DNA of 64,000 bases. It comes from Candidatus Bathyarchaeia archaeon. Lineage in GTDB: Archaea > Thermoproteota > Bathyarchaeia > Bathyarchaeales > Bathycorpusculaceae. The DNA lies in NCBI GenBank assembly GCA_049512075.1, contig JBEKXL010000013.1:1-64000 (forward strand), given 5' to 3'. Position 1 is the first letter of the stretch, and every line of letters begins with the position of its first letter. The position numbers were made by a program, and so were the translations under genes. Below the pieces are notes generated by a model. The model saw only the letters and a list, made by a program, of their open reading frames with translations, was not told the DNA's origin and ran no database searches. Positions 8,967 through 13,533 of this stretch are shown here, piece after piece.

Positions 8967-9186
8967 CTGGACCATGATGCAAAAGGTGTTTCAGCACACT
9001 TGGATTAGCAGCGCGCGCAGGAGTAGGGTATGTCAGCAAACACAAGCTGAAAACTGTGGAGCCTCGAATTTGCAGATGTTGGTTAACGCGCACCTCAGAG
9101 TCAGAAGGCTACAACAATGTTTTCCTGCCCAGAGGACAAGAGATTTTAGGTTTCAAACGCATAAAGCTAACAGGGTCAAAACTCAG

Positions 9187-11877
9187 ATGGCACAAAAGCG
9201 CTTAGAAGACTTTTCACACAAAGAAACTCTGCATGTAAAAGAAGAGAAAGCAGAGCCAAGAATCGCCGTCATCACAGGAAGCGTGGCCAATGAAAAAGGA
9301 AAACGCCTTTCTTTTCCACCAGTGGCACCTCAGAATCTGTCCGCTTCCTATATCGTATCCGCCACGTACGATGGAAAAGTTGGAAAGGCAGTGATGAAAC
9401 TCTACGAACCAGTCTCGGGACAAATCTATTTCTGGTACGACAATACCGGACACCAGCCGTACTGCCTAACCAACCTCTCACGATACGAGCTTGAAAGAAT
9501 CAGCCGCTTAATCCAGCACCAAGGTCTAGACCGATTTGAAATCGTCGAAAAATTCGACCCCCTTCTAGACAAGAACGTGAAAATAACAAAAATTCTGACC
9601 AAAGATCCCCTGGCCATCGGCGGACGCCCCACAGGATGCATCAGAGACATAATCCCCGAAGACTTCCCCAAAGTCTCGGAAACACCAATAGCCCAAGAAC
9701 AAATCAAAGTATGGGAATCAACAATAAAATACTATCAATCCTACATATTCGACAGAAACCTATTTCCAGGAATGATCTACGAGGTTAAAGACAGCAATCT
9801 TGTTGCGAAGACCCTGCAAAGCACTGAAAAAACGGTGACAAAAATACGTGAAGTCTTCAAGGAAGCCACGAACGAAGAATGCGAGTTCATCGTAGAATGG
9901 GCCAGACTACTCGAATATCCAGCTCCAAAGTTCCGCCGCGTAGCCATCGATATCGAGGTACTGGCGCCCATCCCAACACGCGTCCCCGACCCGAGAGAAG
10001 CAGCCTACCAAGTTATCTGCGTCTCAATGTTCGCCTCCGACGGGCTAGAGAAAACCCTGGTCCTTAAACGCGAAGGAATCCGCGAAGGAGCAGAACACTT
10101 ACCAGCAGACATAACAATCGAATACTTTGACACGGAAGAAAAACTCATAAGAGCCGTTTTCGACATCCTTTGGGACTACCCATTCGTACTGACGTTCAAC
10201 GGAGACGATTTCGACCTCCGTTATCTTGCCCACCGCGCCTTGAACCTAGGCATAAGGCATAGCGACATTCCAATAGAAATCGGCAAACGCTCCTGCCTGC
10301 TGAGCTATGGAGTGCACATTGACCTCTACAAGTTCTTCTTTAATCGCTCAATCCAGATATACGCTTTCAACAATCGCTACCGAGACGTAACCCTCAATGA
10401 GGTAGGAAGGGCCCTAATCCAACTGGAAAAAATCCAACTCGACAAAAGCTTGGGAGAATTAACTTACACTGAACTGGCTAAGTACTGTTTCAGGGACTCC
10501 GAAATAACCTTCAAGCTCACAAGTTTCGAAGATGAACTGGTCATGAAGCTGATTCTGGTCCTCGCGAGAATCAGCAGCATGCCCATGGAAGACGTCAGTC
10601 GGCAAGGCGTGTCGCGTTGGATAAGAGACTTCCTTCAACGCGAGCATCGCCACAGAAACATGCTCATTCCAACCCCCCAAGACATACTCGCAACGAAGGG
10701 CAAGACCGCAACAAAAGCAATGATCAAGGGCAAAAAATACAAAGGCGCCTTAGTCGTCGAACCCGTCCCCGGAGTCCACTTTAACGTCGCCGTCATGGAC
10801 TTCCCAAGCCTGTACCCTTCAATAATAAAGGTTTGGAACTTAGGCTACCAATCCATCCTATGTCAACACCCAGAATGCCGCAGCAACCTCATCCCAGGCA
10901 CGCCGCACTGGGTCTGCACCAAAAAACGGGCACTGGAGAGTCTTCTAATCGGTTCGCTAAGGGACCTGCGAGTGCAATGGTACAAACCGAAATCCAAAGA
11001 CAAAGCCCTACCCCCTGATCTAAGAAGCTGGTACAACGTAACTCAGGGAGCCCTCAAAGTAATTTTGAACGCAAGCTACGGAGTCTTCGGAGCCGAAAGC
11101 TTCGACCTTTACTGTCCACCAGTGGCCGAAGCCACCGCTGCAATCGGAAGACACTCCATAACGCAAATACTCAGCAAAGCTGAGAGGCTTAACATCCAAG
11201 TGCTTTATGGAGACACGGACAGCCTATTCTTGAAGAATCCTTCGAAGCAACAGATCGAAGAGCTGGCACATTGGACTGAACAAGAGCTGAAAATGAGTCT
11301 CGACGTCGACAAGGTCTACAGGTACGCGGTTTTCAGTTCGCGAAAAAAGAACTATTTAGGCGTCCTAGAAGACGGAACGGTCGACGTAAAGGGACTAACG
11401 GGCAAGAAACGGCACATACCAGTTTTCATAAAAAGGGCATTTGAACGGATGAAAACACGGTTGGCAACTGTCAAGACACCTGCAGATTTCGAGAACGCGA
11501 AAAAAGACATTGCAGAAATTGTGCGCGACTGTTACATGCAACTCAAGAGGCGAGGGTGGGAGAGCATGAGCGACCTAGCCTTCAACGTGGTCCTGGGCGA
11601 GGATATAGAACACTACACAAAAACAACACCTCAGCACGTCAAGGCTGCGAAAATCTTGAAGGAAAACGGAGCAGAATTGAAGGCAGGCGACCTGATAAGC
11701 TTCGTCAAAATCAGTAGAGAACCACACGTGAAGCCTGTTGAACTGGCAACACGGAATGAGGTAGATGTCGACAAGTACATCGCGTATCTACAATCAACGT
11801 TTGATCAGGTCTTAGACGCGTTAGGTCTAGATTTTGACGAAATAATAGGGCTAACGAAACTGGAACGCTTCCTTTAG
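9187..11877 (+). CDS. polB1: Family B DNA polymerase (PolB1 type)
   Basis: ExoI DIE, FNGDDFD, DFPSLYPS, KVILNASYG, YGDTDS, KKNY; N-terminal YFWYDNTGHQPY typical of PolB1. Confidence 0.95.
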   Translation: MAQKRLEDFSHKETLHVKEEKAEPRIAVITGSVANEKGKRLSFPPVAPQNLSASYIVSATYDGKVGKAVMKLYEPVSGQIYFWYDNTGHQPYCLTNLSRYELERISRLIQHQGLDRFEIVEKFDPLLDKNVKITKILTKDPLAIGGRPTGCIRDIIPEDFPKVSETPIAQEQIKVWESTIKYYQSYIFDRNLFPGMIYEVKDSNLVAKTLQSTEKTVTKIREVFKEATNEECEFIVEWARLLEYPAPKFRRVAIDIEVLAPIPTRVPDPREAAYQVICVSMFASDGLEKTLVLKREGIREGAEHLPADITIEYFDTEEKLIRAVFDILWDYPFVLTFNGDDFDLRYLAHRALNLGIRHSDIPIEIGKRSCLLSYGVHIDLYKFFFNRSIQIYAFNNRYRDVTLNEVGRALIQLEKIQLDKSLGELTYTELAKYCFRDSEITFKLTSFEDELVMKLILVLARISSMPMEDVSRQGVSRWIRDFLQREHRHRNMLIPTPQDILATKGKTATKAMIKGKKYKGALVVEPVPGVHFNVAVMDFPSLYPSIIKVWNLGYQSILCQHPECRSNLIPGTPHWVCTKKRALESLLIGSLRDLRVQWYKPKSKDKALPPDLRSWYNVTQGALKVILNASYGVFGAESFDLYCPPVAEATAAIGRHSITQILSKAERLNIQVLYGDTDSLFLKNPSKQQIEELAHWTEQELKMSLDVDKVYRYAVFSSRKKNYLGVLEDGTVDVKGLTGKKRHIPVFIKRAFERMKTRLATVKTPADFENAKKDIAEIVRDCYMQLKRRGWESMSDLAFNVVLGEDIEHYTKTTPQHVKAAKILKENGAELKAGDLISFVKISREPHVKPVELATRNEVDVDKYIAYLQSTFDQVLDALGLDFDEIIGLTKLERFL

Positions 11878-11880
11878 ACG

Positions 11881-12450
11881 CTACTGGTTCTGCGACAGAG
11901 CTTTCAATCCGTGTGATTTCAATGGCTCTATAACGTTTGGCCGCGACAAGGCTCCTAGAAGAAGGTATCCGATTCCGGCGATGATTATCAAGCTGCTGAT
12001 AGAAAGGCTAACGACAAAAGCCGACCAGATGGGCAACGGTATCGCGCCAAAACTGGGAACTTGCTGCATGGCAGGATTACCTTTCAAGTACAGATAGTAA
12101 AGGTACAGACCAATGGGCATGCCTACAGTCAGACTTCCCGAAACGCAAGCTAAAGCACGATTTTTCCGCAACAGCAATATCAAGAACGCCGCAGTAAAGT
12201 TAACAATCGGCCCGACAACCACATCAGCCGGATCAAGCCAGTAGTACGCATTGCTAAAACAACCTATCGTAACTCCCATTGCCCAGGGCCACCCAAACAG
12301 TGCTGACAGCGGAATCAGACAATCGGCAAGCCTCAACTGAATAGGTCCATAAGTGATAGGTCCTCCCATCGACGTTTGAACAATATTGATTGAAGCGTAC
12401 AGGCTCGCAGAAATAGCCATTAATGCCAAGTCTCTAGTGTCAATTCTCAC
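11881..12450 (-). CDS. queT: QueT-family queuosine-precursor transporter
   Basis: ITYGPIQLRLAD…GVTIGC…N signature; GTG start behind GGAGGTGA. Confidence 0.85.
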   Translation of the reverse strand: MRIDTRDLALMAISASLYASINIVQTSMGGPITYGPIQLRLADCLIPLSALFGWPWAMGVTIGCFSNAYYWLDPADVVVGPIVNFTAAFLILLLRKNRALACVSGSLTVGMPIGLYLYYLYLKGNPAMQQVPSFGAIPLPIWSAFVVSLSISSLIIIAGIGYLLLGALSRPNVIEPLKSHGLKALSQNQ

Positions 12451-12518
12451 GTTTTCACCTCCTACGCCCGGGGTTTGTCGTAGCGGAACGGGTGGAGGCC
12501 CACTCACCCGCTAAACAT
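12451..12518 (-). promoter_or_regulatory. Structured 5' leader, candidate riboswitch of queT
   Basis: Hairpin TAGCGG-GT-GAGTGG-GCCT-CCACCC-GTT-CCGCTA containing CCTCC (anti-SD), followed by an overlapping CTACG…CGTAG hairpin that abuts the SD; TTTAATA box at ~12541-12547. Confidence 0.55.
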
Positions 12519-12645
12519 GTCTATGCACACTACTCACAGTTATTAAATCTTGCTTAGAACAGCTAAGAAGTGTAGGGCCACTGTTGCCTATAGTACTCTG
12601 TCTTGATGCATTGTGCCGCAAGTGCTGTTGAGTGTGACCGAAGTG

Positions 12646-13533
12646 TCAGAGATTCAACAGTAGTCGAGCAAGTGCACCTGCGAGAGTTGTTGCCGCAACC
12701 AAAAGCGAGATTACAATGACTATTTGTCTTTCGGTTAGCGGGCGATTAAACGTGACGAGCGTTATCAAGCTCCTTCTGTGATCTGACATGAGTCGTTTGC
12801 CGTCAAAGGAAACGTTGGCCTTAGTCCTGTAGAAGAAAAATGTCAAGAGAATTACTGCTGAGTTAAATATGTATGGCAAAACTGAAATCACCAAATCGGA
12901 CTTTAGATCCGAGATAATTGCGAAAGCAGCCAGCGTAATCCCTATGGCAAAGGATCCAGTGTTGCCTACGAAAATTCTGCCCCGAAAATTGAAGAAGGCA
13001 AGTATCAGCCAAACGATCAATGGACAAAGCAGAAGGATTGCGAAAGAACCTGAGATGGCCATTAACCCTATCATAATTATTGCGGGACAGATTGTCTCTA
13101 GACCGTTCAAACCGCCAAGCTGGTTAACAGTGTTTGTGATTATGGTCACGAGGATTGGAATGATTATAAAATAGTAGATCGGTCCGAAGTGGATGGTTCC
13201 CAGAAGCGGGAGGACTATTGAAGTACGCGCTCCGACCTGACTTGCAAAAGTGACAAGCGGTATGGCGGCTACAAGTGGAAGGAACGCCTTGTATCGCCAC
13301 TTGAGATCTATCCAGTCGTCCAACAGGCCCATGAACCCACCGAACAAAATGCAGGCTGCCAAGGTCAGAGGCGCAGAAACACCGTTAGCTACGTTCATCA
13401 CGCCTAAGAAATACAGGAGAAAAATGTAAACAACACTAACCATGACATAAAGGACACCTAAACCGTTCGGAACCAGCGGCCTGTTTGGTTTATGTTGGTC
13501 AGGGGCTCTGGGGAACAAAATGTCTTCCTTCAT
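12646..13533 (-). CDS. aglH: Polyprenyl-phosphate GlcNAc-1-phosphate transferase (GPT/AglH, glycosyltransferase family 4)
   Basis: DQHKP…VP, GLLDD, NTVNQLGGLNGLE, FVGNTG; directly downstream of aglB. Confidence 0.85.
   Translation of the reverse strand: MKEDILFPRAPDQHKPNRPLVPNGLGVLYVMVSVVYIFLLYFLGVMNVANGVSAPLTLAACILFGGFMGLLDDWIDLKWRYKAFLPLVAAIPLVTFASQVGARTSIVLPLLGTIHFGPIYYFIIIPILVTIITNTVNQLGGLNGLETICPAIIMIGLMAISGSFAILLLCPLIVWLILAFFNFRGRIFVGNTGSFAIGITLAAFAIISDLKSDLVISVLPYIFNSAVILLTFFFYRTKANVSFDGKRLMSDHRRSLITLVTFNRPLTERQIVIVISLLVAATTLAGALARLLLNL

Follow-up and report, generated by a model that had tools for sequence, protein, structure and literature searches.

Leaders of bacterial queT genes sense preQ1 (7-aminomethyl-7-deazaguanine), as stated in the section of PMC5372724 that concerns them. 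For Archaea, the corresponding section of the 2017 riboswitch census names thiamine pyrophosphate (TPP), fluoride and occasional flavin mononucleotide (FMN), Mg2+-I and guanidine-II riboswitches, all of them bacterial classes of sparse occurrence, and the preQ1 class is not among the archaeal ones named there (PMC5473149). The full-text literature that we searched, which left subscription literature and the census supplements outside, describes no archaeal riboswitch for preQ1 or for preQ0 (7-cyano-7-deazaguanine); Motif_9307 (PMC12747935) is a nosD leader and is unrelated. Here, we analysed a stretch of 64,000 nucleotides (nt) of contig JBEKXL010000013.1, called the window, which carries a conserved leader of about 75 nt upstream of a queT gene (12441..12519; all coordinates of the element refer to the minus strand). 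This leader is almost certainly a real and widespread cis-regulatory RNA that sequesters the Shine-Dalgarno (SD) sequence of queT and, as far as sequence comparison can tell, very probably represents a new riboswitch class for a 7-deazaguanine. We further consider it likely that this class, absent from Rfam, would act as a translational OFF switch and that the 7-deazaguanine concerned would most likely be preQ0.

The open reading frame (ORF) downstream of the leader (11881..12450, minus strand) comprises 189 codons and a stop codon. Its product matches the QueT family PF06177 with 69.1-69.6 bits, for a gathering cut-off of 33.7, over profile positions 1-140 of 141. The queT assignment made in a preliminary description of this DNA is therefore confirmed over the full domain; the features described there were all found as well, the strand (minus) being absent from it. 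The protein is predicted to be the S component of an energy-coupling factor (ECF)-type transporter for 7-deazaguanine uptake, and a genome search found a single QueT in the host.

A protein search detected QueT homologues in 35 of 41 related genomes, and the leader was found upstream of queT at 29 of 30 loci from these relatives, the contig of the 30th beginning within the gene. Save for the closest two (65% and 96%), these proteins are 30-55% identical to that of the window. Despite this divergence, about 35 positions of the leader are invariant or nearly so in an alignment of mostly consensus-like copies (alignment A1), and its consensus can be written near letter for letter as GGCGGGUGAGUGG-N-CCUCCACCCGUUCCGCC-(4-8 nt)-AAACCCCGG-(2-4 nt)-UAGGAGGUG. 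The leader is far better conserved than the protein and, as detailed below, its two stems and its loop-SD pairing covary, two properties that the preliminary description had put forward for checking.

The stem UAGCGG/CCGCUA with an apical GCCUCC complementary to the SD GGAGGU, on which the first proposal was built, is present as described. The 5' strand of this stem, P1 (UAGCGG, positions 7-12 of the element), lies at 12508..12513 and its 3' strand (CCGCUA, positions 38-43) at 12481..12486. A second stem, P2, is formed on top of it by GAGUGG (positions 15-20, 12500..12505) and CCACCC (positions 29-34, 12490..12495). Between the two stems are found G13-U14 (12506..12507), unpaired in the model and invariant in A1, and on the opposite strand the nearly invariant G35-U36-U37 (12487..12489), also invariant in A1 and replaced by rare GCU or GAUU among model matches. 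The anti-SD GCCUCC (12494..12499), complementary to GGAGGU at 12462-12457, consists of the apical loop and of C29 and C30, the two uppermost nucleotides of the 3' strand of P2, which it shares with that stem. P1 is followed by the linker CGACAAACCCCGGGCGUA (12463..12480) with a conserved UAnAAACCCCGG-type segment, A46, C48-C50 and G52 being invariant in A1; the conserved linker segment AAACCCCGG spans 12476-12468. The SD GGAGGUG (12456..12462), which is the 3' strand of the pseudoknot, comes next, and the GTG start codon of queT (12448..12450) lies 5 nt after it, the QueT domain starting at residue 8.

Both stems covary. Among 189 distinct copies, gathered by a regular expression anchored on conserved flanks, pair 8-42 of P1 is GC in 160, AU in 15, GU in 4, UA in 3 and CG in 1 (6 mismatches), and pair 7-43 is UA in 85, AU in 28, UG in 8, CG in 6 and GU in 4 (58 mismatches). 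In P2, pair 18-31 is UA in 169 copies, GC in 11 and CG in 3; pair 17-32 is GC in 168, GU in 8 and AU in 2; pair 19-30 is GC in 168, GU in 11, UG in 3 and CG in 1; and at position 16-33, 167 copies have an A.C mismatch and the other 22 a G-C pair. Genome scans were carried out with a covariance model, R1, and 100 of its matches were aligned (alignment A4). There, pair 8-42 (columns 8-56) is GC in 71, AU in 18, GU in 5, UA in 2 and CG in 1, pair 12-38 (columns 12-52) is GC in 86 and CG in 14, and the covariation of P2 is seen as well. In this set, 93.2% of the cells were paired, compared to 84.6 +/- 0.6% in shuffled alignments and 43-60% when the partners were displaced; 76 cells had changes on both sides, compared to 26.4 +/- 3.7 in shuffles, and the covariation score was 0.230, compared to 0.090 +/- 0.008. 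Each of these three values was reached by none of 500 shuffles, and compensatory changes occurred in six of the ten pairs. Alignment A1 gave a result in the same direction.

The pairing of the apical loop with the SD is supported in the same manner. The apex had been interpreted as an anti-SD, and the comparison bears this out: the apical loop and the adjoining two nucleotides of the 3' strand of P2 track the SD of their own gene through about 40 pair types, among them CCUCC/GGAGG, CCUCCC/GGGAGG, CUCCCA/UGGGAG, CCACC/GGUGG, CACCUC/GAGGUG, CCUUCC/GGAAGG, CCCUC/GAGGG and UUCCGAC/GUCGGAA. When 60 distinct loop cores were compared, the longest Watson-Crick helix formed with the copy's own SD window had a mean length of 5.97 base pairs (bp), compared to 5.32 +/- 0.12 with permuted partners, and none of 2000 permutations reached the observed mean. 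The flanks covary too, a C located 3' of CCUCC occurring with a G located 5' of GGAGG in 35 copies and a U with an A in 8. In alignment A1, 97% of the cells of this pairing were paired. This pairing makes the element an H-type (hairpin-loop-outside) pseudoknot, the SD strand of which lies approximately 32 nt downstream. A second hairpin noted earlier, CUACG (12483-12479) with CGUAG (12466-12462), does exist in the window. It is not a conserved feature, as 102 of the 189 copies form at most 3 bp there and 40 form at least 5 bp in varying registers.

In every variant inspected by eye, about 2 nt are common to the anti-SD and the top of P2, and therefore the fully closed P2 and the full pseudoknot compete. 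Rough energies of the two are of the same order, -14.5 kcal/mol for the hairpin and -9.0 kcal/mol for the 6-bp anti-SD/SD duplex. In the mechanism that we propose, the RNA would fold into one long irregular hairpin made of the 6-bp P1, the internal loop G13-U14/G35-U36-U37 and the six-position P2 with its conserved A.C mismatch, and the 18-nt linker with its near-invariant UAnAAACCCCGG would run back along the P1-P2 helix. G13-U14, G35-U36-U37, the A.C position and UAnAAACCCCGG are nearly invariant without a detected partner, and are taken to form a tertiary core. We infer that a 7-deazaguanine, most likely preQ0, binds directly in a pocket made of the invariant joining nucleotides and the linker, and that binding acts in the OFF direction: it would lock the pseudoknot, the SD and the start codon would be hidden and no QueT would be made. 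When the base is scarce, P2 would close fully, the anti-SD would be partly withdrawn, the SD would be free and the transporter could be translated.

The genes that follow the leader point to a 7-deazaguanine as the putative ligand. According to a hidden Markov model of our own, a QueT-like ORF lies within 720 nt downstream in 185 of the 189 distinct copies; among the other four, three precede radical S-adenosylmethionine (SAM) ORFs and one is cut by the end of the locus. Pfam recognised QueT in 145 of 150 called ORFs, the others being the three radical-SAM ORFs and two that were probably mis-called. For the three radical-SAM ORFs, the best five NCBIfam matches are all QueE models and full length, with scores below the curated cut-offs, and at one of these loci (L033) the QueE-like gene is followed by QueC (119.7 bits). 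The row leader-queT-queC-queT was found in genome G040 (QueC, 209.5 bits), and by coordinates the same leader-queT-queC row occurs in G020, G024 and G034, a second queT being present in two of these four operons (G020:C18:43890-45132, locus L149; G024:C7:3225-4799, L024; G034:C17:21820-22987, L135; G040:C1:395345-397088, L181). At locus L016, the queT that was found follows queC and the leader heads that operon. The first 30 loci were found via QueT and are biased to it; the other loci, found via a DNA pattern or the covariance model, do not carry this bias. No conserved neighbouring gene was found beside the motif apart from que genes. The element is tied exclusively to the uptake and biosynthesis of 7-deazaguanines.

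The host genome (G000, 99.8% complete) was also searched for the genes of this pathway. It encodes one ArcTGT-type tRNA-guanine transglycosylase (284.8 bits, in a 588-aa frame) and two ECF T components. Searches of this genome for QueC and for QueE gave only weak PP-loop fragments and weak radical-SAM fragments, respectively, and no 6-pyruvoyl-tetrahydropterin synthase (PTPS)/QueD was found in it; a true QueC was found in only 8 of the 41 relatives. With ArcTGT and QueT and no QueC, QueD or QueE found, the host appears to depend on an imported base and to be auxotrophic for the archaeosine precursor. Neither PTPS/QueD nor a QueE match was found in any of the five tested relatives (93-100% complete) in which QueC lies beside a divergent QueT paralogue. 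This arrangement suggests the uptake of 7-carboxy-7-deazaguanine (CDG) or 7-amido-7-deazaguanine (ADG) and its conversion to preQ0, one step before the import of preQ0 itself.

We favour preQ0 as the most likely ligand because it is the metabolite common to the salvage-only, queT-queC and queE-queC contexts, and also because it is the substrate of ArcTGT, the base that is put into tRNA. A true riboswitch with the same leader could instead respond to preQ1, CDG or ADG, the archaeosine base, queuine or guanine, a possibility that we judge unlikely. It would agree with the sensing of preQ1 by bacterial queT leaders, as given in that section of PMC5372724, and with the five relatives just mentioned, which suggest that some transporters import CDG or ADG. 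Against it, the motif is near-identical before the salvage-only queT of the host genome, before queT-queC and before queE-queC. Moreover, the base that archaea are known to insert into tRNA is preQ0, not preQ1.

The element is also widely distributed. The model R1 has exactly one match in the 2.7-Mb genome of the host, the leader itself (12441-12519, minus strand; 86.7 bits, E 3.9e-27). At E <= 0.001, it matched 93 of the 151 genomes sampled from the class, and 72 of the 95 among the high-quality ones. In a phylum-wide sample, 39 of 151 genomes had a match at E <= 0.01; among the 46 matches listed, 27 score at least 33.9 bits and the other 19 at most 27 bits, and phylum-wide matches with E values of 0.001-0.01 were not used. 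Matches were found in 19 of 32 genomes of one family of another class and in 5 of 17 of a further order. An exact 28-nt leader pattern occurred in 97 stretches of a collection of species-representative genomes, nearly all of them Bathyarchaeia metagenome-assembled genomes (MAGs), with a few labelled Nitrososphaerota, Nitrososphaerales or Nitrosopumilales and one labelled Ca. Acidoferrum. A pattern for the variant of the other family retrieved Ca. Methanosuratincola, including two complete genomes, and Methanomethylicales as hosts. All occurrences found here are in archaeal genomes, save the one bacterium-labelled contig. A broader claim has slightly more for it than against it: that this would be the first riboswitch class that is both native to Archaea and restricted to them, with a new pseudoknot fold, sensing preQ0 rather than preQ1 and governing QueT salvage and QueE/QueC synthesis across Bathyarchaeia, Methanomethylicia and some Nitrososphaeria.

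Several occurrences call for comment. The 8-kb contig binned as Ca. Acidoferrum (DASPTR010000010.1, L090) carries the archaeal leader and a queT resembling those of Bathyarchaeia, and probably reflects mis-binning and not an occurrence in a bacterium. The leader variant CUCCCA/UGGGAG (L263-L268, e.g. CP130488.1 and CP186953.1) occurs in the complete genomes of Ca. Methanosuratincola LWZ-6 and LCB70, which have been grown in culture or enrichment. Several genomes (G130, G165, G243, G250, G277 and G302) have two or three leader copies each. Leaving aside weak extra matches in G130 and G165 and the first copy in G250 (L191), which lacks the anchors of the regular expression, each copy of these genomes that was fetched and caught by the regular expression precedes its own QueT paralogue, and therefore paralogous transporters would be co-regulated by the same element. 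A weak model match (L156, 20.9 bits) located before a geranylgeranyl reductase gene lacks the motif and was rejected as a false positive; another one (L157, 20.7 bits) has no called ORF.

Several points weigh against the proposal of a preQ0 riboswitch. The single-sequence fold of the leader is no better than that of a shuffled sequence: the minimum free energy of the 81-nt stretch is -23.1 kcal/mol compared to -23.4 +/- 3.2 kcal/mol for shuffles (z 0.10; 101 of 200 shuffles fold as well), and a 161-nt stretch gave z 1.08. The case therefore rests on comparison, and the samples compared have limits of their own. Copies L031-L127 were gathered with the exact 28-nt pattern, and the regular expression with fixed anchors omits 23 of the 100 model matches shown, so that the invariance of these anchors is partly due to construction. 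The counts from alignment A4, which was fitted to the model, are biased towards the structure, and, the sequences being related, the shuffle counts are indications rather than probabilities. Because the sequence is so extremely conserved, the presumed pocket shows little variation, and mutual information detected no partner for the invariant AAACCCCGG or for the internal loop. Finally, in the queT-queC operons of genomes without QueD and QueE, the relevant base might be CDG rather than preQ0.

In anchored columns, mutual information returned only register artefacts and the known pairs 8-42 and 18-31, with no covarying linker columns. Long invariant and apparently unpaired runs would fit a protein-binding site, and the leader might be the operator of a protein or enzyme, either a translational repressor or ArcTGT itself acting on a segment resembling the D arm of tRNA, with binding or base exchange setting the fold. 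The AGUGG within G15-A16-G17-U18-G19-G20 resembles A14-G15-U16..G18-G19 of the tRNA D loop. However, G17 and U18 are paired and covary with C32 and A31 (the counts for pair 18-31 are given above), which indicates that AGUGG is not kept as a sequence, and que genes are the only conserved partners beside the motif. Compact SD-sequestering pseudoknots with invariant junctions are, moreover, typical of small-molecule riboswitches, and we regard an operator of this kind as improbable.

The pairing of the SD in a covarying pseudoknot and the modest helix energies would also suit a structure that works without a ligand and simply limits QueT synthesis, as a constitutive damper of translation or as an RNA thermometer. 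Such a device needs pairing only and would not call for some 20 unpaired positions that stay invariant across several orders and classes, and the association with a single pathway (QueT, QueE and QueC) also speaks against it. In the case of a thermometer, the names of the host MAGs, which come from hot springs, hydrothermal sediments and peat, argue against a single temperature set-point. We consider this explanation very improbable.

A TATA-like box conserved in position speaks for a transcript start ahead of the hairpin. In the 152 copies whose upstream flank is long enough, A+T content is highest, at 0.81-0.91, from -36 to -30 relative to the first G of GCGG, and 112 have a TATA-like hexamer starting 30-41 nt upstream, with a mode at 35-36. 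The TATA-like box reported in the preliminary description is found in the window as TTTAATAA at 12540..12547 (12547-12540 in the direction of transcription), where it begins 36 nt upstream of G9 of P1 and is a putative promoter element. The usual archaeal spacing between TATA box and start would put the transcript start a few nt before P1. Transcription probably starts there, downstream of this positionally conserved box.

The idea that the conserved stretch is coding, with queT starting at GTG 12507 and the conservation being that of an N-terminal peptide, draws on a listed ORF frame that extends to 12507 (208 aa) and deserves next to no credit. Of 181 copies, only 57 have the GUG of the motif in the frame of the called start, and just 18 have it open; loop lengths of 16-27 nt do not respect triplets, and conservation is independent of codon positions. 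In the long ORF, the Pfam QueT domain does not begin until residue 27, equivalent to residue 8 from GTG 12450, and the SD lies 5 nt before GTG 12450. The upstream in-frame GTG 12507, which had been suggested as a possible real start, coincides with G13-U14-G15 of the RNA, and queT starts at GTG 12450 instead. The called start codons of the homologues are TTG (78), GTG (59) and ATG (44). A few queT genes (L044, L090, L049, L080/L114, L038 and L063) have ACG, ATA, CTG or TTA 5-8 nt after the SD, where their close relatives carry ATG, GTG or TTG, which may be non-canonical starts or sequencing or assembly variants.

In the window, the promoter and the leader sit in a 195-nt gap between queT and the gene of a family-4 glycosyltransferase (12646-13533, minus strand), located upstream of the leader on the same strand as queT. 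On the other side, a family-B DNA polymerase gene (8974-11877, plus strand) is convergent with queT and ends 4 nt from its stop codon. ARAGORN detected no tRNA or tmRNA in 12200-12800.

Riboswitches are rare in Archaea according to the section of the census devoted to them (PMC5473149), and an abundant class restricted to this domain would change that picture; if the broader claim made above is true, the element would be among the most widespread archaeal riboswitches. It would also be a fourth, structurally unrelated way of sensing 7-deazaguanines and maybe the first class tuned to preQ0, which would be useful for comparing the ways in which RNA discriminates between nitrile and aminomethyl groups. 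The element marks genes for preQ0/CDG salvage in uncultured Bathyarchaeia, many of which, the host genome included, would depend on their neighbours for the archaeosine precursor. Being short (~75 nt), SD-based and putatively translational, and occurring in complete Ca. Methanosuratincola genomes, it is directly testable and a possible genetic tool for archaea.

The comparison with known riboswitches starts from Rfam 15. Infernal found no relevant match among its 4227 families, preQ1-I, -II and -III included, at E <= 10 on a 3-kb stretch and on the 106-nt leader with lax filters, or at E <= 5 on 20 divergent copies. Chance-level hits to NPPA-AS1, snoU13, Methylosinus-1, S6-S18-Chlorobi and AHBV epsilon were far below gathering thresholds and mostly off the element, and were rejected. 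The preliminary description had spoken of a new or divergent class, and, given that no Rfam family matches, "new" is the better word. General traits of riboswitches are present, namely a conserved structured 5' leader with covarying helices and an association with the genes of one pathway across lineages.

The closest likeness is to the preQ1-II riboswitch (RF01054), found in the COG4708/queT leaders of Streptococcaceae and Lactobacillales. Both lie in the 5' untranslated region of queT and have a hairpin loop that pairs with the SD; by analogy, the present element would likewise be a hairpin-loop-outside pseudoknot that shuts translation on locking, with a 7-deazaguanine as the expected ligand. 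In the preQ1-II architecture, a further hairpin, P4, is embedded between the first one and the SD strand. The present element, which does not match the RF01054 model, has no conserved embedded hairpin before the SD strand; it has instead the UAnAAACCCCGG linker, which is single-stranded, and a stem in two parts whose internal-loop nucleotides are invariant, and it occurs in Archaea (Thermoproteota), where the physiological base is preQ0 rather than preQ1.

The preQ1-I riboswitch is an H-type pseudoknot of about 34 nt with a 5-bp P1 and an A-rich tail, the 3' end of which pairs with the P1 loop. The element resembles preQ1-I (RF00522) in its G+C-rich P1 followed by an A-rich tail and a short C-rich segment (AUAUAAA-CCCC here), in being a small pseudoknotted candidate aptamer that overlaps the SD, and in its association with que genes, including operons of the queE/queC type, which it would control. 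It differs in its length of ~75 nt, about twice that of preQ1-I, in the covarying stem P2 within the P1 loop, in the pseudoknot partner, which is the SD itself 32 nt downstream, and in showing no covariation of CCCC with the loop; here again the model does not match. The same absence of a model match distinguishes it from preQ1-III (RF02680). Finally, the element would share with the TPP, fluoride, FMN, Mg2+-I and guanidine-II riboswitches of Archaea the nature of a cis-acting, metabolite-sensing leader in an archaeon; whereas these belong to bacterial classes according to the section of the census on Archaea (PMC5473149), the present element was found only in archaea.

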